This document shows positions 10,201-36,289 of a stretch of DNA of 64,000 nt, piece after piece. The DNA is from a virus. Taxonomy: Duplodnaviria; Caudoviricetes. Position 1 is the first letter of the stretch. Each line of letters opens with the position of its first letter. The stretch is from the IMG/VR virus record IMGVR_UViG_2905639403_000004, positions 1 through 64,000 of that record. One strand, written 5' to 3'. Made by a program: the position numbers and the translations under genes. The notes below the pieces were generated by a model. It made no database searches. It worked only from the letters and a program-made list of their open reading frames with translations, and was not told the DNA's origin.

Positions 10201-11700
10201 AGTAGCGGCACTTTGAACAACAGATGATGTCAAAATCCCAGCAAGTGATTGCATGCCACTATTCTTAACATTAAGCAATGGTGCTGCCATCTTAGCCTTG
10301 ATTGTTGTCCAACTACCGGACAGCTGCGCAATGGCGCCTTCACTAGTTTTTCCAAATTGGTCAAATGTGCTCTTGCTTGTTGTCCCAACTTTGTAAACTA
10401 AGTTCATGAAGTCGTCAGACTTGATTTTCCCGTCAGCAACCATTTTGGCAAATGACTCCTGACTGACTCCAGCAGCTTTGGCTAATTGTGCGCCTAATGT
10501 AGGAGCCTGCTTTTCAAGTTTGGCAAGGTTTGTTGTTGTTAAATTACCTGAAGCAACGACACGTGTCATCGCTTTAGACAATGAATCCATGCCGTCTCCG
10601 CCTTTGTGCGAAGCCGTAGCAATGCTGGCAATACCAGCACTAATGACTAGAGTTTTATCAGTGACACCATGTGTCATGGTATCAACGGTGGTTTGCATTT
10701 TGTTAACTTCGCCACCGGTTGCACCAGTCTCACTGCGCAAATATGACATTTGATCGGAAAGAATCTGGATATCATTGGCTGACTTACCCATGTTCTCCCA
10801 TGTCATTTTCAGCTTTTCTCCGGCCTCGTTAAGTTCTAGCCCAGACTTTACCGTGTCAGTAATGCTTGAGCTTAGACGTTGCCAGCCGCTCGTAATGGCA
10901 TTGGTGATTAAGCCACCCTCAACAATTTTGTGAAGCAAACCCGGTGTCTTTTCGGCTTGCTTGTTTGTTCCCGATATAGCTTCCTTAACTCTGTTGAAAA
11001 CAGATGGATTAGCCTTCTCCATTTCAGCTTGCAAACCGGTCATAGAAGACTTAGCCTTTGCTAAACTGGTAGCCGTTTCATCAACACGCGTCTTCTGTGT
11101 ACGCCATGCGTCTGAATCCTTGCCACTAGCACTGGCAATCTTATCCAACTCAGCAGACTGTTTAGACAGCTGCTCATTAAGATTGGTAATGGAGGACTTA
11201 TAGCCTTCCATCTTGGCCTTGTTGGCTTCTTGCTGATTGCCTTCAGCCTCTAAGCGAGTCACATAAGCTTGGTTGGCACGTGCAGCAGCTGTGTATTCTT
11301 GCTGTAATCCTGCCAATCCAGACTTTTGATAGTCCATTGCTTGCTTGGCACGATCTTGCTGAGCTTGCATACTAGCAAGCTGCTTAGTTGCACCATCAAT
11401 TTGTTGCTGATACTTTAAAAACTGTTGAGCAACATCGGCGGTATTGCCCTTCAACTCAGCTTGTTTGGCTTTTAGGGCGTCAATCTTAGACTGCTGTGAT
11501 TCAATAGACTTACCCAAGCCGTCATACTTGGCTTGAGCAGCTCCAACTGCATCACCAGCGGATTTCATCTCCGCCTCTTGAGCTTTCCAAGCATTTTGGC
11601 TAGAACGAACAACCGCCGTTAATGATTTGACGGATTCGCTTGCCGACAATAGATCAAGGGCAATCTTGGTGCTCATTGTTGCGTTAATTTGTTGTGCCAC
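7201..11700 (-). CDS. Tape measure protein with C-terminal lytic transglycosylase
   Basis: ~1500 aa, coiled-coil N-terminus, W/F-periodic repeats, IQRESNGNP..GLVQ SLT motif; GTG start at 11700 with RBS. Confidence 0.93.
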   Translation of the reverse strand: MAQQINATMSTKIALDLLSASESVKSLTAVVRSSQNAWKAQEAEMKSAGDAVGAAQAKYDGLGKSIESQQSKIDALKAKQAELKGNTADVAQQFLKYQQQIDGATKQLASMQAQQDRAKQAMDYQKSGLAGLQQEYTAAARANQAYVTRLEAEGNQQEANKAKMEGYKSSITNLNEQLSKQSAELDKIASASGKDSDAWRTQKTRVDETATSLAKAKSSMTGLQAEMEKANPSVFNRVKEAISGTNKQAEKTPGLLHKIVEGGLITNAITSGWQRLSSSITDTVKSGLELNEAGEKLKMTWENMGKSANDIQILSDQMSYLRSETGATGGEVNKMQTTVDTMTHGVTDKTLVISAGIASIATASHKGGDGMDSLSKAMTRVVASGNLTTTNLAKLEKQAPTLGAQLAKAAGVSQESFAKMVADGKIKSDDFMNLVYKVGTTSKSTFDQFGKTSEGAIAQLSGSWTTIKAKMAAPLLNVKNSGMQSLAGILTSSVVQSAATTLGKGLATIANWAKNVLDYVSAHKKDVTGIAGDMWDIAKVAGGEVWSLFKTAIKDIAGWLNVGGSNAKTMKDPLKAIHDVLDDIVKNKSGIQTTVKVIAGLWMTKKALEFAAGLGHVYSGLKALGDTKLAQSILSNFSKLNSSALGKGMATVTIAYDAISDIKDLTKAFSKGGTVGQKFSAVGESSGTLIGGGIGAFFGGPLGAAVGATIGKTVGKWAGDAAKKFTDGWNAKKKPANSWLGGLGWDARQMTNNVVKWWDGINKSTDAAQKKQQKQQEAANKRAQKEWNDFWKGVGKGWNGFLKTVNGWGKSLSTAWSKVWNPISKTMSSIWKNIVKIAKAGLDDLKKVIVYPVAFIAGLFIIAWRKVEKPFKDVWNDLVKFVKPPLNTISKTISNTTKGVQNAWDKTWGAISKFFSDTWNSIVKIVSFSTNWIVKNVTNFLNAVQKVWDSVWKAISNFFGDIWNGIVKIYNNASNTISKGISATLNFIQNVWNRTWGAISDFFGNIWNGMVKFFTPIIHGMSDTIGSVIRNIKNVWTDVWGSVGSFFNGIWDGIKKAAQSGINFVIDVIRTGLSAVNGVLGFFGVKKVSLPSYVHFAQGGEVGKDGTQLAMVNDDGSEHYKELIHKKRTGQWLYTDKKNAILPLETGDRIYNGKESKAIADMYGIPGFAQGGIIGSVWDGVKDASSWVVDKAEDVGKWIGDKFEAIVDWIAHPVKHVTDLVEKSISGLVNLAPVKAFGQLGEGIFKHAYNGIGDWIKKELKKIEDSMANPGGAGVQRWKPYVIQALKANGFDASAYQVAAWMRVIQRESNGNPRAINLWDSNAKAGIPSMGLVQTIGPTFNAFKFPGHNDVYNGYDDLLAGIHYMKAIYGSGSSAFARVSGPEGYANGGLITQPIHALVGEDGPETILPLTKTSRAWQLLGQAVTNINHNLGNGAVTESESSSTDDLGKKLDNIADLLTKLSFVLQVGDDQFYPKVAPKVKQYNDRTDRFNAYWKGGTV

Positions 11701-11705
11701 TTTAA

Positions 11706-11936
11706 TCACCCTTTCTCTTGGTATTGCTGCCACATGATTGCCGGATCAATTGGCCGGTCTTTCTTATCCTTGGCAGACATCATTTCAAACATTTCGAAAT
11801 AATCAGCTTCATCAAAATCATTTAGTGACCAGTGAAAGAAAACGACTGCTTGTTTTTTAGACCATCTAAAATCTTGAAGCTGATTTTCAAGTTCATAAAC
11901 TTTGACGGCTGGATTAATCTTTACTTTTGCTGGCAT
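11706..11936 (-). CDS. Tail assembly chaperone, downstream (gpT-like) ORF
   Basis: Overlaps the end of the chaperone gene and precedes the TMP; lacks a clear RBS. Confidence 0.65.
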   Translation of the reverse strand: MPAKVKINPAVKVYELENQLQDFRWSKKQAVVFFHWSLNDFDEADYFEMFEMMSAKDKKDRPIDPAIMWQQYQEKG

Positions 11937-12264
11937 CCTGCTTCTTGGCAGCTAAGTCAATATCCTCATCACTCATGCCCATCATGCGTTCAAAAGTGTA
12001 ATTAACTGCCTGAATAGTGTCGGCAAATTCTAGGTCTCCAAGTTTTTCAATTTCTTGCTTGTTCAGGGCTAAAACCGTGGTCAAGAAGTCGATTGAGTCA
12101 TGCAGCATATCGCGCTGCATCTTAATAATTTCTACCGGTTCCATATCCGCAACATCGTCTGCCTTGGCCATCAGTAACTGTAAGTCGTACATCTTTTCCA
12201 TGTTCCGATTGGTTGTCTTTACCTCATGTACACGATTGCTAAGCTGACTAACTTTGATCTTCAT
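11914..12264 (-). CDS. Tail assembly chaperone (gpG-like)
   Basis: Between MTP and TMP; ATG at 12264 with AAGGATGG RBS. Confidence 0.8.
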   Translation of the reverse strand: MKIKVSQLSNRVHEVKTTNRNMEKMYDLQLLMAKADDVADMEPVEIIKMQRDMLHDSIDFLTTVLALNKQEIEKLGDLEFADTIQAVNYTFERMMGMSDEDIDLAAKKQDASKSKD

Positions 12265-12426
12265 TGTTAATACCATCCTTTGTATTTGATAAGGTCGCTG
12301 TGGTGAATCGGACACCACCAAGTTCACCAGAAAGCGACTTTTGAGCATAAAAAATAGCGCACGTTTGTGAGCCATTCATCAGTTGTTGCTATGAAATTGC
12401 GTCAGATTACGTCTGTCAGCACCGGC

Positions 12427-13038
12427 TTATTTGCCTAATGATGAGGGTGTCAATACGTATCCGCCGAACACTTCTTTGTACATGTTGGCTTTATCAAACT
12501 TGCTATCAAGATCGCTATAAATCTTGTACGGCTGATTATTAAAGGCCATAGTAGAAAGTGCTGTATAAGTCAAAGCGTCATCTACACGTTGTTCTGCTGC
12601 CGCATCAGTCTGAATGTTAGCTGCGGTTTCGGTCATGATGCCATCACCAAATCCATAGTAAACAAAGTGCGCCCGATCAATGGTTTGGGTGGTAATAAGC
12701 AAGGCCACATGAGCCTTCAAATTCTCATCGGTCCAACCGCCTTTTTTATCACTGACAAACCCTTTAATTTGCTGTTTGACTTGGTAATTCAAGTTGTTAA
12801 TATCCAAAGCCACTGTTGGTTCTGAAGTACCAACCATAACGTCTTGGACAGCATTGTTGCCATAACTCTTAGCAATCGTGCCTGCTAAGTTAGTAATGTT
12901 GGCAGTTTTAGTACCTAAATCTTTGTGATCGACAGTATAGATACCGTCTGTGCTTAGTCCTGTATCAGCGCCAGAAATTAACTTTTGCTGTGCATCAACC
13001 AAAGCTAGCTGGATTTGATATAAACCTACTGTTGCCAT
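12427..13038 (-). CDS. Major tail protein
   Basis: Synteny; 203 aa; resembles Lactobacillus phage tail tube proteins. Confidence 0.85.
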   Translation of the reverse strand: MATVGLYQIQLALVDAQQKLISGADTGLSTDGIYTVDHKDLGTKTANITNLAGTIAKSYGNNAVQDVMVGTSEPTVALDINNLNYQVKQQIKGFVSDKKGGWTDENLKAHVALLITTQTIDRAHFVYYGFGDGIMTETAANIQTDAAAEQRVDDALTYTALSTMAFNNQPYKIYSDLDSKFDKANMYKEVFGGYVLTPSSLGK

Positions 13039-13051
13039 TTAAATCGTCTCC

Positions 13052-13423
13052 TTAAATGTTTTTTGTTCTGCTGAAATAAAATGTGTTGAAAAGCTGTGAT
13101 GTGTCTGGGTCAAATGTTCGTTGCCTGACGGCCGCTACCTGCCAATGCTGATGAGTAAAAGCCTTCATCATGGCTATCTCAATGATTTCGGGATCAGAAT
13201 CAAGCAATTGCGAGTACCAAATCTGTACTTCTACTTCCTGATTTAATGCCCAGAAATCATTGTTACCATGGGCGGTAGGATCATCAGCAGCATCAGTAAT
13301 CAGCACGACTGTTTTGTTCAGATTATCGACTAATTCTTTCGGCAAGTTATTGCCTTTAACTGCATTGATATTGGCAATCCCGGCTTGTCTAAGCATCGTT
13401 ACCGCATCATCTACGGCACTCAT
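13052..13423 (-). CDS. Tail terminator-like protein (DUF806-like)
   Basis: VEVQIWYS and DPDT motifs; synteny. Confidence 0.75.
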   Translation of the reverse strand: MSAVDDAVTMLRQAGIANINAVKGNNLPKELVDNLNKTVVLITDAADDPTAHGNNDFWALNQEVEVQIWYSQLLDSDPEIIEIAMMKAFTHQHWQVAAVRQRTFDPDTSQLFNTFYFSRTKNI

Positions 13424-13839
13424 TTATCCCCACCACCATTCGCTTTGGCAATCATTGCCTGATATTTCTCGGCTTCAGCGGCAAATACAGCGTCTTTGGC
13501 ATCGTCACGGGCATTATCAACAAAGTGATCGCCGCGAATATACTTGGTGCCATCATTCAAGAAGCGGGCAATGTGGGCTTTATTGTGGAACCCAACCGTT
13601 GAACTTCCATTATGGTCACCGTCAATATCTCCCGCAGCACTCCTGATGTCATCGCTCAAATGTCCATACTTACCGCCGTCTCCCTTAGTATTTGGGTGCT
13701 TCTCTTTGGTGGTCTCTGCTAGATTCTCGGCGTAAACATCAGCACCAGCCTTGGTAATCTTCTCTTGGTCAGATACAGAAAGCTGTGCGGCCTTTGATAC
13801 TTGCTTAAGCCATTGGCCAAGTGCCTCATCCATGTCCAC
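13420..13839 (-). CDS. HK97 gp10-like tail completion protein
   Basis: ARFLNDGTKYIRGDHFV motif. Confidence 0.82.
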   Translation of the reverse strand: MDMDEALGQWLKQVSKAAQLSVSDQEKITKAGADVYAENLAETTKEKHPNTKGDGGKYGHLSDDIRSAAGDIDGDHNGSSTVGFHNKAHIARFLNDGTKYIRGDHFVDNARDDAKDAVFAAEAEKYQAMIAKANGGGDK

Positions 13840-13841
13840 GG

Positions 13842-14183
13842 TTATGCCCCCTTAGTTGTTTTGACTAGGGTCAGATAGTCATAGCGAATAGCATCGTTTG
13901 AATCGTCTGGACTAATGTCTGAAATGTCATACACGATGCAATCTATTCTTGCTTGCTGTTGGCTTGCGTTACGTACATCGTGCCTGACAATAATCGTGAT
14001 TGAATTATCCAAACGTGTGCCCACAAGCGTGTACTGCTGGGTGAGTGTCCGCGTCTGCTGCTTGAAATGCAGACTATAATTCGGAACAAAGCTAGTGATA
14101 TTAATGCCAGCACCAGTCGTGTGTGATTTTGGAGAGCCGAGATCAACCTTGCGGCTGAAATCGGCTACTTTAAATTTAGCCAT
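13842..14183 (-). CDS. Head closure / head-tail joining protein
   Basis: Synteny; TIIVRH..YDISDISPDD pattern. Confidence 0.75.
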   Translation of the reverse strand: MAKFKVADFSRKVDLGSPKSHTTGAGINITSFVPNYSLHFKQQTRTLTQQYTLVGTRLDNSITIIVRHDVRNASQQQARIDCIVYDISDISPDDSNDAIRYDYLTLVKTTKGA

Positions 14184-14520
14184 CAGTCTCACCAGCCTTT
14201 GCTGCTTGATCACGCTGAATCTTCCAACGAATGCTGTTGATCATGTAAGCATAGCTGGGTGGATAGGCCTTGCTTTGATCAGATAGTGTGCCTCGTGAGT
14301 AATACATGAAGTCCACCAGCACCCGAACCGCCTGATTGAACAGAGGGTACTTTCGATAAACTTCAACTGCAATCGTGTCATCGACAGCATTCATCACTGC
14401 GCTTTCCGCCGTGTTAATCAAGCTGCTAAGAATCTGCGCATCACCATCAGTGTCCAGATTCAGGTAGGATTGCATATCATCAGCGGTAACTCTAACGGTA
14501 TCGGTCGTTGCATCGGCCAT
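14176..14520 (-). CDS. Head-tail connector (gp6-like)
   Basis: YLNLD..D..ILSSLI..AE and AV..LV..MY..R motifs; follows the capsid gene. Confidence 0.82.
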   Translation of the reverse strand: MADATTDTVRVTADDMQSYLNLDTDGDAQILSSLINTAESAVMNAVDDTIAVEVYRKYPLFNQAVRVLVDFMYYSRGTLSDQSKAYPPSYAYMINSIRWKIQRDQAAKAGETDG

Positions 14521-14591
14521 ATTCAATCCTCCTTTAGTGGCCGCCCGCCTTATCGGCGAATTGTTTATTTCTTAGGCGACTAATAATCGTA

Positions 14592-15770
14592 TTACTTACC
14601 AAGACCGGAACCAGATACAGCATCTGTATTGGTCACAAAATATCCGGCATTGCTATCGGCCTGTTTGACGCCAAATCGGAACGCGGCACCAAGATATTGG
14701 CCCCAAATTTTATCGTCAATCCATGCAAGTGTTACCTGTTGACGATCCGTAAACAGGACACCACGCTTCAGATCACCAACGAATGCTTTTTGATCACCTG
14801 CAAGAGAGCCGAGAAGAGTATCACCAACAACATATACGGGAACACCAAGAACCGTGCCCTTTGCAGTTCCGTCAGTAATAGAATCGGAGGCGTCGTGAAG
14901 CAAGTAGCGGCCGTTCTTATCCTTTAAAGTGTCAAGTGTGTTGAACAAAGACTGAGTAACCACAAGAGCACGGCTATATGCTGGATCAAGATCAACGTTC
15001 AGGATGTGCTTAAGGCTATCTACAAGAGTATCAGTGGTTGTTGCCTTGGCTTTGAATGACTGTAATACAGGCGCAATCATCGCGTTGTAAGTATTAACAG
15101 ACTTCTCCTTAATAGATTGACCAACAAGCGCAGTCAAATCGACTTGCGAATCAGCGATGGCTTCTTCTGAAAGCGGGATGGCCCCGCGATACGTGGCCAC
15201 CGACCAATCCACTTGAGTGAAATTCGGTTCAGCAAGTGCCGGATTCTCAGCCAGCTCTGCCACACTGGAAAAACGATCAGTCGCCCGCTTCAAAATCGGG
15301 TATGTGCCCTTAGGAGTAGTAACCGGCGTCTTGGTAACCAAGGTGGACAAATCCACAACCGAATTTACCTCTGCGGTAGGGTCATAAATAATTTCTTCCG
15401 GAATCAGCACACCAGCTTCGGTCGAAGTGACGTGACTGGCTACGTTTTCAATCACCTTGCCATGGCTATGGATGAAGTCGTTGATAGCTTTCTTCTTGGC
15501 GTCAATTGGCTTTTTCTTTAAGTCTGTTCCATTTGGATTAGCCTTGTCTTTTGGCTTGTCAGAGTTAGAATCATCCTTCTTTTCAGCTTCAAGGGCTTTA
15601 ATCTGATCGTTAATAGCGTCCCGACGTGCCTTGGCAGCGGTCAAGTCGTCCTTGATCTTTTGAAAATCATCCACAGATGCATTTTCATCTTGTAATTTTG
15701 CGTTGAGCTGCGCGTTGAGGTCAGCACACTTGGCACTGACTTCATTAAAAAGCGTTTGTAATTTGTCCAT
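14592..15770 (-). CDS. Major capsid protein, HK97 fold, with N-terminal coiled-coil delta domain
   Basis: AGVLIPEE, LKDKNGRY and LGVPV motifs. Confidence 0.93.
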   Translation of the reverse strand: MDKLQTLFNEVSAKCADLNAQLNAKLQDENASVDDFQKIKDDLTAAKARRDAINDQIKALEAEKKDDSNSDKPKDKANPNGTDLKKKPIDAKKKAINDFIHSHGKVIENVASHVTSTEAGVLIPEEIIYDPTAEVNSVVDLSTLVTKTPVTTPKGTYPILKRATDRFSSVAELAENPALAEPNFTQVDWSVATYRGAIPLSEEAIADSQVDLTALVGQSIKEKSVNTYNAMIAPVLQSFKAKATTTDTLVDSLKHILNVDLDPAYSRALVVTQSLFNTLDTLKDKNGRYLLHDASDSITDGTAKGTVLGVPVYVVGDTLLGSLAGDQKAFVGDLKRGVLFTDRQQVTLAWIDDKIWGQYLGAAFRFGVKQADSNAGYFVTNTDAVSGSGLGK

Positions 15771-16465
15771 TATTGGACCTCCTTTTTGTCATAAAAAATA
15801 GCCAGCTTCTTGTTTAGCAGATCATTCTGCTTTGGAAGTTGACTACGTAGCTTTTCATTTTCATCTTTCAGATTCTTAATTAGTTGAACTGCGTGATGTG
15901 GAATAATCGGACCCATAGCGTTTACAATTGGCGTATCGAAGTCTAGCTTTTCATCTGCCAATCCTAGTTCGACAGCTTGATCAGCGTCTAGCCAAGTTTC
16001 TTTATCCATCAATGCTAAAAAGTCATCGGCAGATTTCCCAGTCTTTGCAGAGTACAGGCTTGCGATTGCGCTATCGGTAGTTTGCAGCATTCCAGAAGCG
16101 GCATCCATCTCGTGCGAATTACCACTAGCATCACTTGATGCTCGATGAATCATCATCTTGGCGCCTGGCGCCATCTGAACCTTATTAGCCCCCATGGCAA
16201 CAATTGTTGCAGCAGAATACGCGTTTGACATCACCTTCGCTGTCACATTTCCTTGATAGCTACGCAAAGCATTGCAAATTTCCGTTGCTGGATCTACCTC
16301 GCCACCATTTGATGTAATTTCAAGTGTGACATCGGATCCGTCCGCTGGCAGAGACCCAATCACATCAGCCGGCGAAACAACTGCTTGTCCAAACCAATCA
16401 CGATAAATCGGAGCATCATCGTCATTAGTAATTGCACCATTAATTTTAATTGTCACCTTCATCAC
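15770..16465 (-). CDS. ClpP-type prohead protease
   Basis: ITSNGGEV, AYSAAT, MMIHRAS and ETWLDADQAVELGLAD motifs. Confidence 0.92.
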   Translation of the reverse strand: MMKVTIKINGAITNDDDAPIYRDWFGQAVVSPADVIGSLPADGSDVTLEITSNGGEVDPATEICNALRSYQGNVTAKVMSNAYSAATIVAMGANKVQMAPGAKMMIHRASSDASGNSHEMDAASGMLQTTDSAIASLYSAKTGKSADDFLALMDKETWLDADQAVELGLADEKLDFDTPIVNAMGPIIPHHAVQLIKNLKDENEKLRSQLPKQNDLLNKKLAIFYDKKEVQ

Positions 16466-17603
16466 CTCCCTTCACTTGTGTAGTAAGTGGCTCGAACTCA
16501 GGCAAGTTATTGGGGAAAAATTTCGATCCCTTGAGCATGGATTGAGCCTGATCTACTCCCACTAAACCAGCCTTTGCAAGATTTGATAACTGGTTAATCA
16601 GTATTGAGTCGTCAACATCCAACATGTTTTTGATATCTAGCTCAAGGTCCGGTGCGTTCATCTTCAAACGCAGCTCATCCACGATTGGATTAACATATGA
16701 GTTTAAGTTCGCCAGATATGTTGCCTTGATCTGGTCAATGTTTGAGTGTTGGCTTTCGGTCGATGTTCCGCCGCCCAAAATATCGCTAGGCACACCAAAG
16801 GCCTTGGAGATTTGATCAGCAGAGTATGCTGAATTATCAGCCAAAGCTTTAAAAACGTCAGTCTTCATTTCAAGCTGGGTGTAATCGAACCCATCCGGTA
16901 AAACCATCAAGCGACCGGAGTTATCACCGGTATTTGCCTTCTCAAACTCTTCACGAGCCGCTTCTAAGTCCTTGCCATCGCTTAAATAGTTGCTTATTTT
17001 TAGCTGACCGGCTGGATTGATCTGATTTTCCATAGCGCTCATGTTGCTCTTTGAGGCTTTATCGTCCAAATTAAGGGCGTTTTGTAAGCTTTCTAAAGGC
17101 GATCGGCCAATCAAATATCGATATTGTGGGTCTGGCATGAGCCTAAAATGCAGCATTTGGTCTTGCCTAAGCACCATTTGAGGACGATCATTGCTCTCCA
17201 AAACCGTATAAACAATGCCCATATTGCCTGGTAAATAGTTAATTTGGACGTCAGAGTTAGGAATATGCTCCAGATTCTGCCCAACTAACGGGATATAGTC
17301 GTTGCCTGACAAACAAAGTTGCATCAACGCACCTTGCCAGAAAGAAAACCGGCCTATCAAGCTGCTAGGGCTCTCAAGTCGGTTCAATGTTGCAGTATTT
17401 TCAGTTTTGAAGTGTGCCGAGGCAACATCGCTAGCAATACGGTTAATCACACTATAAACATTAGTGTTTTGCAAAGCGGACAGCGCCGAAACATAAGACA
17501 GCTGCATGCCGCCAACCGTGGTCGTGAAAAAAGCATAATTGCTCGGATAAACCATGTTTTTGGCCTTGCGTTTGCTGAAATTTTTAGGGGTTAGAAGTCC
17601 CAT
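16446..17603 (-). CDS. Portal protein, HK97 family
   Basis: VYSVINRIASDVA, MLHFRL, GRSPL and ISKAFGVP motifs. Confidence 0.92.
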   Translation of the reverse strand: MGLLTPKNFSKRKAKNMVYPSNYAFFTTTVGGMQLSYVSALSALQNTNVYSVINRIASDVASAHFKTENTATLNRLESPSSLIGRFSFWQGALMQLCLSGNDYIPLVGQNLEHIPNSDVQINYLPGNMGIVYTVLESNDRPQMVLRQDQMLHFRLMPDPQYRYLIGRSPLESLQNALNLDDKASKSNMSAMENQINPAGQLKISNYLSDGKDLEAAREEFEKANTGDNSGRLMVLPDGFDYTQLEMKTDVFKALADNSAYSADQISKAFGVPSDILGGGTSTESQHSNIDQIKATYLANLNSYVNPIVDELRLKMNAPDLELDIKNMLDVDDSILINQLSNLAKAGLVGVDQAQSMLKGSKFFPNNLPEFEPLTTQVKGGDEGDN

Positions 17604-17609
17604 TTAGCT

Positions 17610-17783
17610 TCACCCCCTTTCTTTGTCCAAAATATAAGCAGCTAAGCACGTCTCAAGACCTGCAACTAGATAACCAATAACAACGTTAAAGGTGAATGCT
17701 GCTACCGCAATTAGTGCCAAACCGATGATAAAGAGCATCACTGTGCCCCAATTGCTGAACAAATTGCTAATAATTTTTGCCAT
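17610..17783 (-). CDS. Small two-TM protein between terL and portal (57 aa, not in ORF track)
   Basis: Hand translation MAKIISNLFSNWGTVMLFIIGLALIAVAAF...ILDKERG; GGAGG RBS. Confidence 0.75.
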   Translation of the reverse strand: MAKIISNLFSNWGTVMLFIIGLALIAVAAFTFNVVIGYLVAGLETCLAAYILDKERG

Positions 17784-19681
17784 TATTTACCACCTCCAAA
17801 CATTGCCTTGAAGAAGTCACGTTTTCCTTTTGCGTCTAGGTCATTAAGCGGGTTATATCCATCATCATGATAGTTTTCGAAGTAGAATTTTGCCTGCGCA
17901 TGGGCATTAATAAGCGCATCGGTCGTATCAATATGATCACTCGTGCGATTTTGACGGTCAATCTTGACCGAACCGCCGCGATCTTCTACCAGTACAGCAT
18001 TGTTTAGCCCATCAATCAGCAGCGGATCGTTCAACATCGAAATGTTGCCATTAATAAACAGATTCTGAAAATCCTTGGTAGGTTCATTCAGCTTGAACGA
18101 GGTAGGAGGCAAAGGAAACCATTGCCACTGCGGTTGATAATTCTCCAGTTTCTTTTCTAGCCATTCACCGTGGTTTGGATCAGCAATGATGAATTTTACT
18201 TTGAGCCGATGTTGATTAACGTAATCAACCAACCACTGGTAAACCTGATCGGTGTTGATTACGCCTGATGCAAGATTCGTAATATCCACAAAACCTTCAT
18301 CTTGCAATTTAAGGTAATCTAATCCGTCCTGTTTCGACTTGGCTTCAATGGTTTTTGCCTGTGCAAATGGAATGAAGCTATGCTGCTGAACATGAAACAT
18401 GTGTTTATCATGATCAGTGTACGGATAAATGAAGCCAAAAGACGTATTGTCATTGGTCTGCGACCCGTCAAACCCTATGAACACATCACGTCCATTCACA
18501 TCGAAATGGTCGATAATACTGCGCTGAATGTTGTCTAGGGACAAATAGCTGTTTTGAAATCGCCGGCTCCATAGATTTAGGGACTTATTTACGAAGGTTT
18601 CAAGTGTTCCTTCACGTTCGTTATCGTTGCGATCTTGGTTAAGCGCATTTTGAAGGTTGTCCCGTTTACTCTTTTGCAGCTCAAGCAGATTAGGATTAGA
18701 TTTTGCCCATGTTTCGGGTTCAAATACCTCATCCTCCGAGTCCTGAGAATAAATTACTTGGAATACGTTGTCAGCGTCTCGAACGGCGTCATGCTCAATG
18801 GCAGCCCTAGTTACGTCTTCATCATTCTTAAACTTGACCTTGATATCAGGGTAAGCTGTTGAAATCTTGACGAACATTCGGTTCTTAATGCCATTTTGCC
18901 CGGATGTAATCTGCTTTAAGGTCTCATTCAAGGCTGGCCTCAAGTTACCAATTTCATCATAAACAGCGATTGCATTGTGGAAACTATCAAAGCCACCGCC
19001 TTGTGAGGTACCTTTTCGGATCGTGTTCTTAGTGTTTTTTGCAATAACTTGCGTGGTTTGAGATTCCACGCCTCGCTCTCTAGCATCATCTGCAAAGTCC
19101 GGCAGGGATAAAATTGTCTTCGCCTGCAAAGACACGTCATTGAACAGCTTGGTTGCGTGTTCACTATCGTAGCTGGCCACCAGCAAGTCCTGTGATGTCG
19201 CATTCCAGCACACTACAAAGTAGTAGAAATTGATCAGGATAGAAGCAAGCCAAGTCTTGCCCTGTTGGCGAGCAATAGATATGTTGGAAGTTGTGAATCG
19301 AGTACCGTTGTCAACGGTTCGCCAACCAATCAAGCTATCAAGGATAAACGATTGCCATTTGAATGGCTGAATTGTTTTTGAAGTATCGTCTGGATTGGGC
19401 AGCAACCGTGAAAAGTATTCAATTGCGTTGACCATGTCTGAGCTGTATTGGTAGGGGAAATCATCATTGCCAATTCTAAGCAAATCGTTTAAGTGCCGAA
19501 TACATGCCAGCTGAACGTCTCTACCAGTCATGTACTTATCCGTAAACATCACGTCATAAGCGTACCTTGTCCCTGGATCATGGTACTTATCAAACAGTCC
19601 TTGGTAATCTGATTGGTACGGCTTTACGTAGCCGCGAATATCTTGCACACCGGTAAAATCAAACGTCTGCACCAAAGCCAA
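17783..19681 (-). CDS. terL: Terminase large subunit
   Basis: WQSF, IARQQGKT (Walker A), YDE (Walker B), ISTA and GFDGS motifs. Confidence 0.94.
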   Translation of the reverse strand: MALVQTFDFTGVQDIRGYVKPYQSDYQGLFDKYHDPGTRYAYDVMFTDKYMTGRDVQLACIRHLNDLLRIGNDDFPYQYSSDMVNAIEYFSRLLPNPDDTSKTIQPFKWQSFILDSLIGWRTVDNGTRFTTSNISIARQQGKTWLASILINFYYFVVCWNATSQDLLVASYDSEHATKLFNDVSLQAKTILSLPDFADDARERGVESQTTQVIAKNTKNTIRKGTSQGGGFDSFHNAIAVYDEIGNLRPALNETLKQITSGQNGIKNRMFVKISTAYPDIKVKFKNDEDVTRAAIEHDAVRDADNVFQVIYSQDSEDEVFEPETWAKSNPNLLELQKSKRDNLQNALNQDRNDNEREGTLETFVNKSLNLWSRRFQNSYLSLDNIQRSIIDHFDVNGRDVFIGFDGSQTNDNTSFGFIYPYTDHDKHMFHVQQHSFIPFAQAKTIEAKSKQDGLDYLKLQDEGFVDITNLASGVINTDQVYQWLVDYVNQHRLKVKFIIADPNHGEWLEKKLENYQPQWQWFPLPPTSFKLNEPTKDFQNLFINGNISMLNDPLLIDGLNNAVLVEDRGGSVKIDRQNRTSDHIDTTDALINAHAQAKFYFENYHDDGYNPLNDLDAKGKRDFFKAMFGGGK

Positions 19682-21863: not shown

Positions 21864-22394
21864 TTACACCGCCAACTCGAAGGAAAAACCTCCGTGATAT
21901 TTGCGCTTGCCACGAAGACACTTAGATACAGCGCTTCGGTCTAGTCCAAGAAGTTCCGCGGCTTTTCTGGCACTTTCAAAGAAATAGCGATGTCCCGAGC
22001 CACTTACCGCATAGATTGGACGCTCGTTTGCCTTTGCCGCGCGCTCGGTGCGAGTACCGTAATTGGTATTATATAATGCTGTACACCACTCAAGATTTTC
22101 AACTAAGTTGTTGCCTTTGTCCTCGTCCATGTGATTGACTTCTGGCAAGTTGTCGGGATTGTCTAAAAATGCTGCGGCTACCAAGCGATGAATGAACACT
22201 TGCTTTATGCTTCTGTCCCAATATAAATTGACCTTGAGGTACCCGTTTCTATTTGGAAAGCTGGCGATCATCTTCCCTTTTAAGCGGCGTCCTTGTGCGT
22301 CTTCGCGATCAAGGCTTCTTACTCTGCCCATATTGCTAACTTGGTATAGTCCCTCAAAGCCTTCAATATCTTTCCAAATTTCAGTTGAGTTCAT
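21864..22394 (-). CDS. NUMOD4-HNH homing endonuclease with C-terminal HTH
   Basis: EIWKDIEGFEGLYQVSNMGRVRS, HRLVA, VNH..NLEWCT motifs. Confidence 0.92.
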   Translation of the reverse strand: MNSTEIWKDIEGFEGLYQVSNMGRVRSLDREDAQGRRLKGKMIASFPNRNGYLKVNLYWDRSIKQVFIHRLVAAAFLDNPDNLPEVNHMDEDKGNNLVENLEWCTALYNTNYGTRTERAAKANERPIYAVSGSGHRYFFESARKAAELLGLDRSAVSKCLRGKRKYHGGFSFELAV

Positions 22395-23598
22395 AAGTAC
22401 ACCTCAATCTTTCGTCGTCATAAACGAACGCATACAGCAAATGCTTGCCCGTGGTGAAGCCATTCTTAATCTCATAGGGATCATTTGGTTTCGCAGTTCC
22501 AAGCTGGCGCCACATAATGCCACGATCATCTTTAAACCGCTCGCTATGATAGTGGCCTGAGTGAAGTTCGTATGTTTTTGCCATATTGAATATCTTTTTG
22601 TACTCAAATGGAAAAAGCCCTGTCAGCTTGTCCTTGGCTACATCTCCATGGGCGAGCATAATGCCAACATGCCCTAGCAAGTATGCACAGCGCCAGTCGG
22701 TTGCCAAATTACTGTCATTGAGATCAACGTGGACTTGTGGATAGCGATCTATCAGCGCATAAAGAAAAGCGTATTCGAGATCACCTGAATGGTTACCGAA
22801 CACGCTCTTGATTGAGACGCGATTGCTATATTCAATTGCCAGCGGAATAATCTGATCAAACAACTTCACAGCATCATGGAATGCCTGACGCATGTTTGCG
22901 TGATCTAGTTGCGTTCCTCTAACCGTTTGTGTTACATGAATCTGATCACTATGGAATAGATCTCCCAATTGCTCGATCACAATTTCGTTGTAGCCGTCCA
23001 TGATGATCTCTCTAAGTTGACTCACCATGTCTTTTAGATCGGCGAATGTTGTCCAGCCAAAATGCAGGTCAGGCAATGGGATGACTAAGTTGCGATCGCC
23101 CGATTTCTTCATGCCGTAATTGACCGGAATGATTTTGCCGTTGAATGCTTCAGCCATTTCACTTATCGATAAGCCTTGTTTCGGCTTTACGCGAATATGA
23201 ATGCTGTACTGCGGAACTGTGCCATTTTCGGTACTATGCTGCTCATACACTTTGTAGTCGCCTAAGACCATCTCGAACTTATCAGGATCGTATCCACACA
23301 ACTCCATCAAAGTCCGTGGGTCTTTATTTGGCTCATGCTTGAGTCTCATTAAGGCCGTGACTGTTTGACTACCATCAGCATTAAGAGCTACTTTTCTATC
23401 AACGGGTTGGCTCTTTCTATCTGTTTTCGCTGAATCGTATTCATTCTTCAATGGCTTTTGGAACTCGATACCAAGCCGTCTTGCTTTGCCTTGAAGCGCA
23501 TCATAGCTAATCCCGAGTTTGTCGGCTGTCTCGCGTCTGGTAAAGCCTTCAGAGGCGAGCTTCCTAATGTCACCAATCTGTTCATCTGTCCATTGCAT
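22381..23598 (-). CDS. Calcineurin-like metallophosphoesterase with N-terminal GcrA-like HTH
   Basis: DLHFG, GDLFHSD, GNH, HGD and GHYH motifs; MQWTDEQI...LGISYDALQGKARRLG. Confidence 0.82.
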   Translation of the reverse strand: MQWTDEQIGDIRKLASEGFTRRETADKLGISYDALQGKARRLGIEFQKPLKNEYDSAKTDRKSQPVDRKVALNADGSQTVTALMRLKHEPNKDPRTLMELCGYDPDKFEMVLGDYKVYEQHSTENGTVPQYSIHIRVKPKQGLSISEMAEAFNGKIIPVNYGMKKSGDRNLVIPLPDLHFGWTTFADLKDMVSQLREIIMDGYNEIVIEQLGDLFHSDQIHVTQTVRGTQLDHANMRQAFHDAVKLFDQIIPLAIEYSNRVSIKSVFGNHSGDLEYAFLYALIDRYPQVHVDLNDSNLATDWRCAYLLGHVGIMLAHGDVAKDKLTGLFPFEYKKIFNMAKTYELHSGHYHSERFKDDRGIMWRQLGTAKPNDPYEIKNGFTTGKHLLYAFVYDDERLRCTYELN

Positions 23599-23627
23599 CT
23601 ACTCGCCTCCTGAAATATAATAATTGA

Positions 23628-23701
23628 GGCACATGCAATCATGTGCTGCTCTTTTCATTTTTATTCCTCAGGCTCTCGGACTCGACCCCGAGAGCTTTTT
23701 T
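23628..23701 (+). ncRNA. Putative sRNA cassette A1
   Basis: TTGCAT-17-TATAAT promoter (23593-23621); GCACATG/CATGTGC hairpin; pyrimidine-rich seed; GCTCTCGG/CCGAGAGC-T6 terminator. Confidence 0.6.
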
Positions 23702-23737
23702 GTTGCTTAAAAGATTTCAATAAGCTAAAATTAAATT

Positions 23738-23815
23738 GTTCCCAATAAATACTCATTTTCACTCCTCGGTACTACCCCACTCCTTAGCTCTCGGCCCCCA
23801 ACCGAGGGCTTTTTT
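23738..23815 (+). ncRNA. Putative sRNA cassette A2
   Basis: TTGCTT-17-TAAAAT promoter (23703-23731); CTCATTTTCACTCCTC seed; GCTCTCGG/CCGAGGGC-T6 terminator. Confidence 0.6.
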
Positions 23816-23851
23816 AGTATCCTTATACACAGGATGTGCTATTATGTAGCC

Positions 23852-23953
23852 ATGAGCAGTGGCCTTTCTCCTCCAAGTCAATCGCTGCTACTCACACAAG
23901 TATTTCGTTTTTTCATCCTTTTGGCCCTTGGACTGGTCTCTGAGGGCTTTTTT
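23852..23953 (+). ncRNA. Putative sRNA cassette A3
   Basis: Extended -10 TGcTATTAT (23837-23845); hairpin with TTTCTCCTCC in its loop; GCCCTTGG/CTGAGGGC-T6 terminator. Confidence 0.55.
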
Positions 23954-24003
23954 GTTGCATAAAAATAGCACCTCACCGGTTGGCGGAGTGCTCGTGTAAA
24001 TAA

Positions 24004-24022
24004 AAAGACGCCGTGGCGTCTT
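24004..24022 (-). terminator. Intrinsic terminator downstream of the 223-aa moron
   Basis: AAGACGCC/GGCGTCTT stem followed by a T run on the minus strand. Confidence 0.6.
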
Positions 24023-24125
24023 GATATCTCACCGATTTGTCTTTCGTTTGATGTCGCTTGATCCGAGATTACAAACAGAAAAGCACAAACTAAATATTCC
24101 TAGAAAAAGACTAAAAAGAATCATT

Positions 24126-24797
24126 TTATTTCCCTCCATATACGTTCAAATCGCCACTGACTCTTTCATTCAAATCCTTGCCGTTCTTTTCTTGGAATTT
24201 TTGATTGAACTTTAAGTATTTTGTGGCTAGATCATTCCTCTTCTGCAAAGCATTTCTGTCGTCAAGAAGAACCCGTCTAACTAAAGCCAATGAATTCATG
24301 AAGTCTTCCCGGTCTCCTGCAGTTAGATAGAAAGACTGCTTGTACTTTTTATTTTCAAACAGCTCAGTTACTTTGGCATTTAATCGATAAATGACATCAG
24401 CTAAGTCCTTGCGATAGACTTGGTAATTCATTGAATTGCGTTGAGGCAAACGAGTTATTTGAATATCTTCAATTACTTGCAAATTTTGTTTCAAGCTATA
24501 TATTTGATAGTCAATTTGATTTTTTGTAACGGCTATGTGATCTGACTCTGCAACTTTTCCAGTCAAAATATCAATGTCAGTTTCGGCTAGTTTAGAAGAG
24601 TTTACCAACGCTTGATTTGACCTTTGCATGTATTCTTCATTTGCTGTCCTATAACTATTCCACGTATTCAAACTGATCGCAACCGAAACTATTGATATTA
24701 TTATTGGAATAATCTTGTCCCACTTTGTCTTCATTACGTGGAATATTCCTAAGACAAAATCACCAATTCGCTCATACAGTGGCAGCTTCACTTTCAA
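24126..24797 (-). CDS. AT-rich moron, membrane-anchored hypothetical protein
   Basis: Single N-terminal TM helix (IIPIIISIVSVAISLNTW); visibly lower GC than flanks. Confidence 0.75.
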   Translation of the reverse strand: MKVKLPLYERIGDFVLGIFHVMKTKWDKIIPIIISIVSVAISLNTWNSYRTANEEYMQRSNQALVNSSKLAETDIDILTGKVAESDHIAVTKNQIDYQIYSLKQNLQVIEDIQITRLPQRNSMNYQVYRKDLADVIYRLNAKVTELFENKKYKQSFYLTAGDREDFMNSLALVRRVLLDDRNALQKRNDLATKYLKFNQKFQEKNGKDLNERVSGDLNVYGGK

Positions 24798-24935: not shown

Positions 24936-24990
24936 TGTGGCATGCGGGAATCGAACCCACCTGACTATCTCAGCCAGTCCTCATTGCCAC
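24936..24990 (-). other. D-armless tRNA-like structure
   Basis: GTGGCA/TGCCAC acceptor stem, GACTG/TAGTC stem with 7-nt loop, GTGGG-TTCGATT-CCCGC T-arm. Confidence 0.5.
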
Positions 24991-25069
24991 GCCTTGCCAC
25001 AGCTTTATCATCACTGAGGCTCGGAGGAAAAACGCGGTGTCTCAGGTTTCTCACCTTTGGCACAATACC

Positions 25070-25113
25070 ATCATATGACGGAAAAACAGTTGAAAGGTCT
25101 CACAAAGGTCTCA
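25070..25113 (-). promoter_or_regulatory. Putative ArpU-activated late promoter
   Basis: Tandem AAAGGTCTCA repeats (25093-25102, 25104-25113) at the arpU 3' end; -10 TATGAT at 25070-25075. Confidence 0.5.
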
Positions 25114-25537
25114 TCTCGATTTCAACCAATGGACAAATCTCAGCGAATGCGATTAGCGCTTCTCGTTTTGTTCGATAATACTGGGCTTTTGATAAAAACA
25201 GCTTGTCCATTATTTGCTGGTCACTATATCGTTTGGTTAAGTAAGAACTTGTTAATATAAGCCGATGATTCGCTGAATCCAGAGATTCGATAGCACCTTC
25301 ACAGCACGCTATATAGTACAGCTCGTCAGCGTGCGATACGAGCTTTTCCTCGGCTTTGTTGCCATAGCTAGGTGACTTGGGCATGCCGTCCATCACGGGG
25401 CTTCTGAGCGCTATTTTGGTGCGTTGAGCGAGCCGCTTGTGATGCCAGTAGTTCCCCAAGACCTCTTTGGCGTTTTCAATTGTTTTGTCATGATCAATTG
25501 GGCTAAAATATCTCGTTGCTCGCACCACTGCGTCCAC
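25100..25537 (-). CDS. arpU: ArpU-family late transcriptional activator
   Basis: RSPVMDGMPK, RLIL..Y, S..QYYR.KREALIAFAE motifs. Confidence 0.85.
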   Translation of the reverse strand: MDAVVRATRYFSPIDHDKTIENAKEVLGNYWHHKRLAQRTKIALRSPVMDGMPKSPSYGNKAEEKLVSHADELYYIACCEGAIESLDSANHRLILTSSYLTKRYSDQQIMDKLFLSKAQYYRTKREALIAFAEICPLVEIEMRPL

Positions 25538-25610
25538 TCCTTATGGTTTGATTTGGTTGGGTTTGTAGGATAAGCGTGCCTTCGTGGTGCGCTTTTGTTA
25601 TACTGTTTGT

Positions 25611-25699
25611 GAAGATGGTGGCTTAAGTTCCATTATTCAAAAGCCATGTATTGCATAAAAGTCCCTGTCTTCCACCCGTCGCTAATCCGGCGGTTTTTT
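25611..25699 (+). ncRNA. Putative sRNA cassette B1
   Basis: Extended -10 TGtTATACT (25596-25604); GAAGATGG/CTGTCTTC stem; CCGTCG-ctaatc-CGGCGG-T6 terminator. Confidence 0.55.
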
Positions 25700-25712
25700 G
25701 TTATACTGTCTT

Positions 25713-25796
25713 CGGAGGCCCACTCCAAAATGACTATTACCCTGGTGCAATTCACACACTGGCCTCCGGCGCGTCCCTAATCAGGCGCGCTTTTTT
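25713..25796 (+). ncRNA. Putative sRNA cassette B2
   Basis: Extended -10 TGtTATACT (25699-25707); CGGAGGCC/GGCCTCCG stem; GCGCGT-ccctaatcag-GCGCGC-T6 terminator. Confidence 0.55.
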
Positions 25797-26022
25797 ATTT
25801 GCTTTCAGGAGGCCGAATGAGCTCCCATGGATCAATCCCAGCTCCATCTGCGATTTTATCTAAGGTGTTAAGTGAAACACTGCCCTTCCCAGAGATTGCA
25901 TATTGAAGCGTGTTGATGGGTATTCCGATCTCTTTTGCATATTTTGCTTGTGTCATGTTCAGATCGTATATATTCTTCCTAAGGTTTTCGGACAATGCTC
26001 GTTTGCTGTCCAATCTGCTCAT
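25795..26022 (-). CDS. XRE-family HTH protein
   Basis: MTQAKYAKEIGIPINTLQYAISG..SLNTLDKIA motif. Confidence 0.85.
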   Translation of the reverse strand: MSRLDSKRALSENLRKNIYDLNMTQAKYAKEIGIPINTLQYAISGKGSVSLNTLDKIADGAGIDPWELIRPPESK

Positions 26023-26856: not shown

Positions 26857-27066
26857 CTACTCAAATTCGATTGCTGGTATGTTCAGGTGCTCAATCAAGC
26901 CGAGGCGTTCCAACCGCTCATAGTTGAGACGCTCGCAGTATAAATCTGCTTCGTACTGAGACCTGAATTCCTTGATTTTGGTTTCGCCATTGCGGCCCAC
27001 AATCTTGAATTTCATTTTTTTATCAATCCTCTCCAGTTGGCTCATTTCTTCAAAATGTTTACTCAT
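26857..27066 (-). CDS. Hypothetical phage protein
   Basis: 69 aa ORF with GGAGG RBS. Confidence 0.65.
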   Translation of the reverse strand: MSKHFEEMSQLERIDKKMKFKIVGRNGETKIKEFRSQYEADLYCERLNYERLERLGLIEHLNIPAIEFE

Positions 27067-27455
27067 TTTTCTTCCTCCAATTTCACGATTTCGCCGGTTT
27101 CCTCAACGCGCCAGGAACCTAGCAGCCAAGCACGGGCGAAAGCATTGCTTGAGCTGATAATCCAGCTTTCCACATCATCCGTTAGTTTTTTAAACCCTTG
27201 ACTGTGAATGAATTTGAAGCTGTACATCATGTAGAGCTGAATATCGTATGACTTACCCCACTGGATGTATTCACTAACTGCTTCCGGAATCACCGGCAGA
27301 TCATCTGGCAAGGCGGCAGCGTAACGAGCACTATAATCAGACAGGCTTTCCGACCAATCTTCAAATGACCCGTCCCTAGGCAAACTACTAATAAAATTTT
27401 GTTTCCAGTCGTCTAGTACCACCTTGAACACGTCCCGCTTCGTCTCATTGCTCAT
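27063..27455 (-). CDS. DUF1642-like protein
   Basis: LPVIPEAVSEYI...FARAWLLG pattern. Confidence 0.7.
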   Translation of the reverse strand: MSNETKRDVFKVVLDDWKQNFISSLPRDGSFEDWSESLSDYSARYAAALPDDLPVIPEAVSEYIQWGKSYDIQLYMMYSFKFIHSQGFKKLTDDVESWIISSSNAFARAWLLGSWRVEETGEIVKLEEEK

Positions 27456-35780: not shown

Positions 35781-36272
35781 CTACTTAATCAATAAATGCT
35801 CACCGCGTGGCTTAAGCTCCGCACCAAGCACTTTTTCTCCGGCTTCTAATCGTTCTCGAATCTTGTCTGTATCTGGTTCGCGTTTTATCTTGAATACATC
35901 AGCCTGCAAATTGTCTTGATCGATGTAAATTTGCTGTTTTCCGCCATTCTTAGCAACACTGATAGTGAATAGCGGTGTCTTGATTTTGCGTTGATTAGTT
36001 TCGTTCATTGCTTCAACCAACCGCTGTGAAATAGTACCGAGATTAGATTGATAAGCTTTAATCCGTGCTTCGAAACGGTCACGTTCTTTTTTGTTAGCTT
36101 CAATATCGGCCTTGATTTGGCGAATAACCTGTGCATATCCTTCGGCTTTGTCATTAATTGCATCCACGATTGAATCCATGGTGTCGGCCAATACTTCGGG
36201 ATCAGTTGTCCCGTCTTCAGCTAGTTCTAATAAACTCGCATATTTTCCTTGTAAGTCGTATAATGTTGACAT
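35781..36272 (-). CDS. Siphovirus Gp157-family protein
   Basis: MSTLYDL, KAEGY, KIKTPLFTISV and GAEL motifs. Confidence 0.88.
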   Translation of the reverse strand: MSTLYDLQGKYASLLELAEDGTTDPEVLADTMDSIVDAINDKAEGYAQVIRQIKADIEANKKERDRFEARIKAYQSNLGTISQRLVEAMNETNQRKIKTPLFTISVAKNGGKQQIYIDQDNLQADVFKIKREPDTDKIRERLEAGEKVLGAELKPRGEHLLIK

Positions 36273-36289
36273 AATAACTTTCCTTTCTA

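Follow-up and report, generated by a model that had tools for sequence, protein, structure and literature searches.

Three short units standing head to tail on the plus strand of an A2-like Lacticaseibacillus prophage (positions 23593-23960) are probably real small-RNA genes that fill a variable prophage slot, and we infer that they act as base-pairing regulators. The DNA analysed, below called the window, is a stretch of 64,000 nucleotides (nt) corresponding to positions 1 to 64,000 of the Caudoviricetes record IMGVR_UViG_2905639403_000004 in IMG/VR. An earlier reading of the sequence alone had proposed three promoter-to-terminator cassettes with variable antisense middles, expressed to silence host or rival-phage messages. 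It is very likely that the units are functional, independently transcribed small-RNA genes. In the explanation that we favour, units 1, 2 and 3 (about 76, 78 and 103 nt) would each be transcribed on the plus strand from a −10 promoter of its own to an intrinsic terminator of its own, and the array would fill a hypervariable "moron" slot flanked on one side by a conserved border element that has a minus-strand terminator and on the other by the gene that opens the packaging-side operon. The RNAs would pair through CU-rich single strands and loops, several of them complementary to a ribosome-binding site plus start codon, and this pairing would block translation initiation or trigger cleavage.

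Anatomy and transcription of the units

The elements of the array are listed here with the cassette families, defined among related phages, to which the units belong.

23593-23621, plus strand: predicted promoter of unit 1, TTGCAT-17-TATAAT, whose −35 hexamer overlaps the start codon of a minus-strand gene for a protein of 405 amino acids (aa)
23628-23703, plus strand: predicted small RNA of unit 1 (family A1, about 72-76 nt), with a 5′ hairpin, the single strand GCUCUUUUCAUUUUUAUUCCUCAGG and a terminator
23704-23732, plus strand: predicted promoter of unit 2, TTGCTT-17-TAAAAT, whose TTGC is supplied by the junction behind the unit 1 terminator
23739-23816, plus strand: predicted small RNA of unit 2 (family B, about 78 nt), with an open 5′ part containing ACUCAUUUUCACUCCUC, then a terminator
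23837-23845, plus strand: predicted extended −10 promoter of unit 3, TGcTATTAT, with TGTGCTA[T/A]TAT kept in 14 of 14 family C sequences
23852-23954, plus strand: predicted small RNA of unit 3 (family C, about 103 nt), with a long 5′ hairpin carrying CCUUUCUCCUCC in its loop, a single strand with UUUUUUCAUCCUUUUGG and a terminator

Each unit carries a −10 element and ends in a hairpin followed by six T residues (23670-23697, 23786-23810 and 23923-23948), and the three terminators lie where the sequence-only reading had put them. Terminator-like sites numbered 7 in the 3 kb around the array, against 2.7 ± 1.7 in shuffled sequences. The predicted fold of unit 1 consists of a 5′ hairpin, a 22-nt single strand and the terminator (z = −5.0, with 0 of 200 shuffles as good), that of unit 2 of a 47-nt open 5′ part and the terminator (z = −2.9), and that of unit 3 of a long 5′ hairpin, a 28-nt single strand and a terminator whose stem contains two G·U pairs on the plus strand (weak, z = −1.1).

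The −10 elements are kept among relatives. The TATAAT of unit 1 is present in cassette-bearing slots and absent from phage A2 and from an empty slot. Promoters of families A and B have the form TTGCAT/TTGCTT-17-TATAAT/TAAAAT; across 29 aligned family B sequences the hexamers are almost invariant (TTGCTT, TTGCCT or TTGTTT; TAAAAT or TAGAAT), while at least five spacer columns vary. An extended −10, TGnTAnnnT, precedes each of families C, C2, D, E, F and G.

The junction that had been noticed after units 1 and 3 does recur: the 55-nt stretches ending these two units are 76% identical (repeat family D1). In several relatives the junction TTTTTTGTTGCA behind the terminator is followed by a −10, a Shine-Dalgarno (SD) sequence and a 72-aa CsbD-like open reading frame (ORF; Pfam PF05532, E 1e-12) with its own terminator, and the junction hexamer before this −10 is TTGCAC. 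The presence of a protein gene in that position supports the proposal that the junction works as a −35 element, and it makes the slot a plus-strand moron island. Tandem Repeats Finder detected no tandem repeat in the array, which is thus composed of distinct cassettes, not of repeats.

Four of 24 RNA runs from one search were compared, two of them size-fractionated and from one study (X3 and X14) and two ordinary RNA-seq from another (X7 and X11). Related cassettes are very abundant in the small-RNA libraries. Summed contig depth over units 1 and 2 (23594-23809) was 93,000-349,000 in X3 and 65,000-264,000 in X14; unit 1 accounted for 71,000-350,000 (X3 and X14) and unit 2 for 65,000-145,000 over 23702-23809. 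The body of unit 3 (23810-23917) showed depths of 3,500-19,000, and its terminator bin (23918-23971) 85,000 in X3 and 8,300 in X14. Depth over the flanking 405-aa gene was about 10 in X3 and 0-8 in X14. The zero cover beyond 24026 in all four runs is no finding; related strains differ there. RNA contigs of 60-68 nt span 23626-23700, fitting the predicted unit 1 RNA, and start 5-10 nt downstream of TATAAT, and unit 2 is represented by one listed contig (23745-23814, depth 4). In X14 one contig has, immediately 5′ of plus-strand sequence at 23903, a tail that ends in ...TCCGACGATC plus 10 nt. We read this tail as the 3′ portion of the 5′ adapter used in Illumina small-RNA libraries, perhaps including random bases, in which case the contig has plus-strand sense.

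The slot among related phages

The window is an A2-like Lacticaseibacillus prophage, and a 501-nt query around the array matched 44 phage records, all from the casei/paracasei/rhamnosus group. The cassettes are unannotated in the phage records examined. All lytic genes lie on the minus strand, from 1 to about 37,000, and genes for Cro/CI-type (repressor-like) helix-turn-helix (HTH), M78 peptidase and integrase proteins occupy the plus strand at 38287-40818. The array is on the strand of the prophage repressor and integrase genes, opposite all lytic genes.

A search with 22 nt from the start of the 405-aa gene as anchor matched at least 118 IMG/VR stretches. Pooled with the window, loci of the record it belongs to and the phage records, they form a slot set of 128 segments with 100 distinct sequences; counts are given as distinct sequences because some segments duplicate one place, and all slot counts are among the matches listed. 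Cassette architectures were assigned with nine cassette reference sequences. At least one cassette is present in 64 of the 100 distinct slots, with one to six cassettes each and at least nine families. All 194 cassette hits are on the plus strand and their order is fixed: A1 or A2, B, then C/C2/D, E, the CsbD-like gene, and F or G. Between the same anchors, slot length ranges from 47 to 1455 nt (75 distinct slots with both anchors), and a scan for hairpins with T-runs in these 75 returned 139 terminators on the plus strand against 8 on the minus strand. The common types, counted as segments with redundancy, are A1-D (15), A2-B-C-E (10), A1-B-D (10), A2-B-C-CsbD-F (10), A2-B-D (8) and A2-D (7). 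The type of the window, A1-B-C, is rare (3 segments, 2 of them the window itself). Of the slots without cassettes, some measure 47-48 nt and are empty, and others contain protein genes on the minus strand, ORF54 of phage A2 being an example. The array is thus modular, as had been predicted, with 0-6 cassettes in the same slot of different phages.

The sequence-only reading had described a conserved scaffold with an exchangeable guide; a common architecture does exist, stems vary less than single strands within families, and the linker of family A2 is hypervariable, but in families A1 and B the stretch complementary to a ribosome-binding site is among the best-conserved parts. The cassettes are at least nine families with a common architecture, some sharing a 5′ hairpin or terminator sequence, and not one scaffold with swapped seeds.

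Phage PLE3 of strain BL23 carries A1-D, and a second prophage in the 73,375-base provirus record to which the window belongs carries A2-B-C-CsbD-F at 71748-72611 of the record (outside the window; positions 1406-2260 of locus L006). The latter includes a 72-aa CsbD-like plus-strand gene, and a second integrase gene lies at 41513-42769 of the window, on the minus strand. The longest slot (1455 nt, locus L102) has an extra insert between A2 and B at slot positions of about 130-450, with a T-arm-like GGTTCGATTCC; it is possibly a tRNA fragment or attachment-site remnant.

The slot is bounded by the following minus-strand features.

22381-23598, minus strand: 405-aa gene, the nearest one left of the slot, whose N-terminal domain is GcrA-like (Pfam PF07750, E 7e-8)
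23962-23992, minus strand: conserved right border of the slot, an inverted repeat AGCACTCCGCC...GGTGAGGTGCT followed by TGCTATTTTTAT
24005-24022, minus strand: intrinsic terminator (terminator scan) closing the upstream lytic transcription unit, after a 223-aa gene
25100-25537, minus strand: DUF1492 gene (Pfam), upstream in the lytic direction

The 405-aa gene has a leader complementary to the array. In relatives this gene is annotated "DNA repair exonuclease" or "GcrA", and downstream of it in the lytic direction stand HNH/NUMOD endonuclease genes and the small terminase gene. The DUF1492 gene we take, at the level of its family, to be a late regulator. The core of the right border, AATAGCACCT, occurs within 1600 nt in 75 of the 100 distinct slot sequences, and its minus strand carries TGCTATTTT behind the inverted repeat. 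The minus-strand pattern TGnTAnnnT gave 51 matches in array-bearing slots with the right anchor, roughly one per slot. The border may be either a second minus-strand terminator or, by its extended −10, a late promoter region; as a late promoter, it would have every late transcript begin by reading the array in antisense.

Beyond the border, the 223-aa gene (24126-24797, minus strand) has no Pfam family, and its position holds different genes in related phages, which makes it another variable accessory position adjoining the array. A 36-aa ORF at 24029-24139 (minus strand) overlaps the end of that gene just before the minus-strand terminator. It has a good SD sequence and a hydrophobic core followed by a basic tail (MEGNKMILFSLFLGIFSLCFSVCNLGSSDIKRKTNR), has no Pfam match, is unlinked to the cassettes in relatives, and could encode a small membrane protein. 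A tRNA-like remnant lies at about 24936-25001 (minus strand), with a T-arm-like GGAATCGAACCC; its best Rfam match is tRNA-Sec (23 bits, E 0.83), ARAGORN found no tRNA in the window, and phage PLE3 has an annotated tRNA-Ile at the corresponding place.

Strand of folding, coding capacity and structural constraint

To compare the strands we used alignments of the cassette families (A1, 10 distinct sequences; B, 29 sequences; C, 14; A2, 22; E, 8). Base pairs predicted by RNAalifold were 97.4-100% canonical on the plus strand and 74.0-92.7% canonical when mirrored to the minus strand, a difference in the same direction in 8 of 8 families (family C, 98.9% and 75.0%). The canonical share falls on the minus strand because many pairs are G·U on the plus strand. 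The RNAalifold energy favours the plus strand in 7 of 8 families. Nucleotide diversity was 0.057 in paired columns (n = 292) against 0.134 in unpaired columns (n = 348), a difference reached in 0 of 10,000 permutations, and was lower in paired columns in 7 of 8 families, the exception being family E.

As had been noted from the sequence, the unit middles lead into no substantial minus-strand ORF: they open micro-ORFs of 19, 31 (33 from a GTG) and 12 aa, and the peptides are not conserved. The family B micro-ORF has 15 peptide variants in 29 sequences, two with early stops (after MSI and after MSIYWE), and 2 of the 29 have no SD-preceded ATG on the minus strand. The minus-strand ORF is wholly absent in 19 of 22 A2 and 8 of 8 E sequences. 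No conserved SD-preceded ORF was found on the plus strand of the cassette families. The cassettes are non-coding on both strands.

These data speak to two readings that would put the function, or part of it, on the minus strand. According to the first, which is very improbable, the functional elements are ribosome-binding sites of the leader micro-ORFs and the hairpins are leader structures of the late operon. Well-spaced SD-ATG pairs do occur opposite units 1 and 2, the unit 1 micro-ORF stops exactly at the start codon of the 405-aa gene, and the A2 terminator pairs better on that strand; yet the peptides are unconserved, some stop early, whole families have no ORF, T-runs follow the hairpins on the plus strand (139 against 8), the G·U asymmetry favours that strand in 8 of 8 families, and the adapter-bearing contig has plus-strand sense. 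The second would make the RNAs antitoxins of type I toxin-antitoxin pairs with the micro-peptides as toxins, and we consider it barely credible. The geometry, in which an RNA covers the SD sequence and start codon of an opposite-strand micro-ORF and the unit 2 promoter lies inside such an ORF, resembles that of SymR/SymE or Sib/Ibs. The peptides, however, are hydrophilic or mixed, have no transmembrane stretch, are poorly conserved and often absent, while the hydrophobic 36-aa ORF at 24029-24139 is overlapped by no cassette and the annotated gene upstream differs in the array-bearing phages R10.1, P7.1 and PLE3. A type III (ToxI-like) toxin-antitoxin system was also considered and rejected: the array contains no tandem repeat, its units differ and have their own promoters and terminators, and no plus-strand protein gene follows it in the window.

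A further reading would grant the units transcription but no regulatory role. They could be decayed or minimal morons or a stack of insulating terminators, that is, recombining promoter-terminator shells whose RNAs are abundant as stable hairpins. This reading accommodates the 36 of 100 slots without cassettes and the absence of a target in our searches, the recombination that similar GC-rich terminators and recurring junctions could drive, and the position of the highest RNA signal on terminator hairpins (bins 23648-23701 and 23918-23971). It is nevertheless improbable given the sequence record: the 5′ hairpins are conserved as well as the terminators, with G·U-compatible changes on the plus strand, paired columns vary 2.4 times less than unpaired ones, the −10 elements are kept across families, and the fixed order over many lineages together with a second array of the same design suggests selection.

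Several observations weigh against the view that the units are small-RNA genes with a regulatory function. The promoter strings of the sequence-only reading are all present, but the sigma-70 consensus scan missed those of units 1 and 2, because both −35 hexamers match TTGACA at only three of six positions; the promoter case for the array rests on the −10 elements. The fold of unit 3 is no better than those of shuffled sequences. For family A2 the folding energy is better on the minus strand (−29.8; plus strand, −22.5), and its commonest terminator has a C·A mismatch on the plus strand that would be G·U on the minus strand. The close relationship among the sequences leaves few double compensatory changes (0-2 pairs per family), and the contrast between paired and unpaired columns is partly circular, because RNAalifold prefers conserved columns. 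The small-RNA evidence comes from two runs of one study and from a related strain, not this provirus, in the form of assembled contigs with summed depths, which are a poor expression measure and from which RNA ends cannot be mapped. Size selection disfavours mRNA and inflates the contrast with the flanking gene; X7 and X11 gave long contigs of depth 66-340 across genes and array alike and are uninformative on discrete RNAs. Strand sense rests on the single adapter-bearing contig and on our reading of its tail as an adapter. Because 36 of the 100 distinct slots have no cassette, the array is dispensable for the phage. Lastly, the enrichment of pairing motifs described below is only marginal, and the searches of the 73-kb record and one host-species genome yielded no trans target for the cassette RNAs.

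Candidate targets and relation to known RNAs

The sequence-only reading had identified the unit middles as reverse complements of translation-initiation regions. This was borne out for units 1 and 2, which complement an exact SD-spacer-ATG, and less cleanly for unit 3. The single strands of units 1 and 2 and of family F follow the pattern CAU-N5-7-CCUC, which is complementary to a ribosome-binding site together with a start codon, and the loops of C, C2, E and G contain CCUUUCU or CACCUC, which we take to correspond to the anti-SD tail of 16S rRNA. The pattern complementary to translation-initiation regions occurs 5 times in the cassettes against 1.6 in shuffles (p about 0.02), and 5-mers of the 16S anti-SD tail 23 times against 14.7 in shuffles (p about 0.05), with 4 on the opposite strand.

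Searches for trans targets gave no support to the proposed silencing of host or rival-phage messages: neither the 73-kb provirus record nor the one host-species genome searched contained a match above chance. With blastn-short, the nine cassette RNAs matched the 73-kb record at chance level only, the best being unit 1 (14 of 15 nt at 27063-27077, E 0.92). In the host-species genome the complement of the unit 1 seed found one generic site with 3 mismatches, and the unit 2 seed found arrays only. For units 1-3, duplex energies with 156 candidate translation starts in the 73-kb record did not improve on those of shuffled RNAs, and this test was discarded because the energies were implausibly large. 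A 10-nt match between unit 2 and the SD sequence of the DUF1492 gene (25534-25543) was rejected as a target: the SD sequence is invariant in 15 of 15 locus pairs, and the matching unit 2 segment is present in 6 of 15.

If the units are functional small-RNA genes, the chance that they act on the phage leader in cis or on homologous phages is nearly even; trans action on ribosome-binding sites of the host or of other phages is a somewhat weaker prospect, and some other role is rather unlikely. The trans alternative as a whole, in which the RNAs would work like streptococcal csRNAs or Listeria LhrC on host or unrelated-phage messages and their complementarity to their own leader would be incidental, is possible. 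It fits the CAU-N5-7-CCUC segments of units 1, 2 and F, the 16S-tail-like loops of C, C2, E and G, and the CsbD-like protein moron, a host-benefit gene, in the same slot; LhrC blocks an SD sequence by UCCC motifs in its loops and single strand (PMC4132741). Against it stand the lack of extended trans complementarity (at best the 14 of 15 nt in the 73-kb record, short-seed targets lying beyond these searches), the match of unit 2 to the DUF1492 SD sequence in only 6 of 15 phage pairs, and the fact that the would-be seed of A2 is its most variable part.

Regulation of phage leaders, whether those of the resident phage or those of an incoming phage that shares its cassettes, seems to us slightly more likely than trans regulation of host messages. 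The sole target that sequence would guarantee is the complementary minus-strand leader of the phage's own operon, together with the same leader of an incoming phage carrying the same cassettes. The slight preference comes from a design that recurs elsewhere in the window: a plus-strand −10 is placed where translation of a minus-strand gene begins, and the predicted RNA heads away from the coding sequence through the leader of that gene.

Two other regions of the window were noted in this connection. At 25538-25800 (plus strand), in the space separating the DUF1492 gene from an HTH gene, three terminators (25572-25594, 25676-25693 and 25768-25791) and two copies of the junction TTTTTTGTTATACT, a T-run fused to an extended −10, form what looks like a second, similar small-RNA array. 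In relatives its first unit has TGGTATAAT at the DUF1492 translation start, and across related loci the region is modular, being whole, missing its middle unit or having its last unit duplicated. At 36259-36323 (plus strand), a TATAAT overlaps the start-codon region of a 163-aa minus-strand gene (35781-36272) and is followed by a CU-rich complement of the SD sequence of that gene and a strong plus-strand terminator (36292-36317). This region may represent a lone antisense cassette that covers a real ribosome-binding site; among the sequences examined it has 6 full-length matches, including one in the record of the window itself.

A bolder extension, which we regard as unlikely, is that the arrays form a modular RNA lock and superinfection barrier, a combinatorial counterpart of the single immunity RNAs of the c4/CI type. 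Cassette RNAs of the lysogen would pair with lytic leaders at 23.6-24.0 kb, at 25.5-25.8 kb and perhaps at the early gene at 36.3 kb, so that leaky expression from the prophage would be silenced, as would the corresponding operons of any incoming phage whose cassettes match, and recombination at common terminator/−35 junctions would shuffle cassettes into new specificity types. In known phage immunity systems of this kind (c4 of P1/P7, CI RNA of P4, sar of P22), the lysogen produces RNAs that pair with a lytic-operon leader, and variation in the pairing segment sets specificity between related phages. Those are single RNAs with known targets, several processed from a longer transcript, whereas the array consists of several self-contained cassettes whose complementarity to the minus-strand leader is given by position alone.

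Among other known RNAs, prophage small-RNA morons are the closest in setting. The array has terminators of its own, is a variable insertion between conserved phage genes and is non-coding; as to promoters, the −10 is conserved and the unit 1 contig starts fit it, and the −35 is weak and absent from the consensus scan. Published examples are svsR of prophage NC-SV (PMC12803456) and, in pathogenic E. coli, the small RNAs and anti-small RNAs of lambdoid prophages (PMC4104026). The likeness lies in the terminator and, here as a prediction, the promoter of each RNA, the position between conserved phage genes, the presence or absence among relatives and presumable expression in the prophage; the difference is that here up to six different cassettes stand head to tail in Gram-positive siphophages, opposite the lytic operon, with no role in Hfq or anti-small-RNA function implied.

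In shape the units recall two groups of Firmicute RNAs. The CiaR-dependent csRNAs of streptococci are about 80-150 nt long, with two stem-loops and an unpaired middle complementary to SD plus CAU (PMC3091779). Stem-loops likewise flank such a segment in unit 1, loosely in unit 3 and not in unit 2, which has no 5′ stem-loop, and several related copies occur per genome in both cases. The cassettes differ in being phage-borne, in forming different families and not near-identical paralogs, and in having no sequence or Rfam similarity to csRNAs. A CiaR-type direct repeat had 12 matches at ≤2 mismatches in the window against 8.2 expected, and none in 23593-23960. LhrC1-5 of Listeria monocytogenes is a multicopy small-RNA locus of a Firmicute with CU-rich motifs, in loops and in the single strand between hairpins, that block an SD sequence, and with a promoter for each copy (PMC4132741); its copies, however, are almost identical, chromosomal and under LisRK control, whereas the cassettes differ from one another, are phage-borne and variable in number, and have no Rfam match. 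An existing Rfam family, which could have explained the units, was looked for: there were 0 matches at the gathering score in the window and none at E ≤ 1 on the arrays of 5 loci.

We found no description of a multi-cassette, variable small-RNA array in Lacticaseibacillus phages in the literature. A catalogue of L. casei BL23 holds 307 putative small RNAs, referred to in its main text by name only, with positions in supplementary tables (PMC8220740). Since PLE3 of BL23 carries an A1-D array, this catalogue may already list single RNAs of this kind. PLE3 occupies 1,248,493-1,294,544 of NC_010999 (PMC9600169); if catalogue numbers equal locus tags divided by ten, which is a guess, two northern-validated RNAs, sLCB1299+ and sLCB1312+, would fall within or close to this prophage. 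The available passages of a paper on the BL23 prophages make no mention of small RNAs (PMC9600169).

If the cassettes are real regulators, they would be among the most abundant small RNAs in the strains that carry them and would represent an unannotated layer of prophage control or lysogenic conversion. The L. casei/paracasei/rhamnosus group comprises widely used probiotic and dairy strains, most of which have A2-like prophages. To our knowledge, such Gram-positive hosts have no Hfq-type chaperones. The fixed order and the presence or absence of at least nine families in one slot make a tractable natural system for the gain, loss and shuffling of non-coding genes, and the slot could reveal whether antisense RNAs set the specificity of phage-phage exclusion in Gram-positive hosts.

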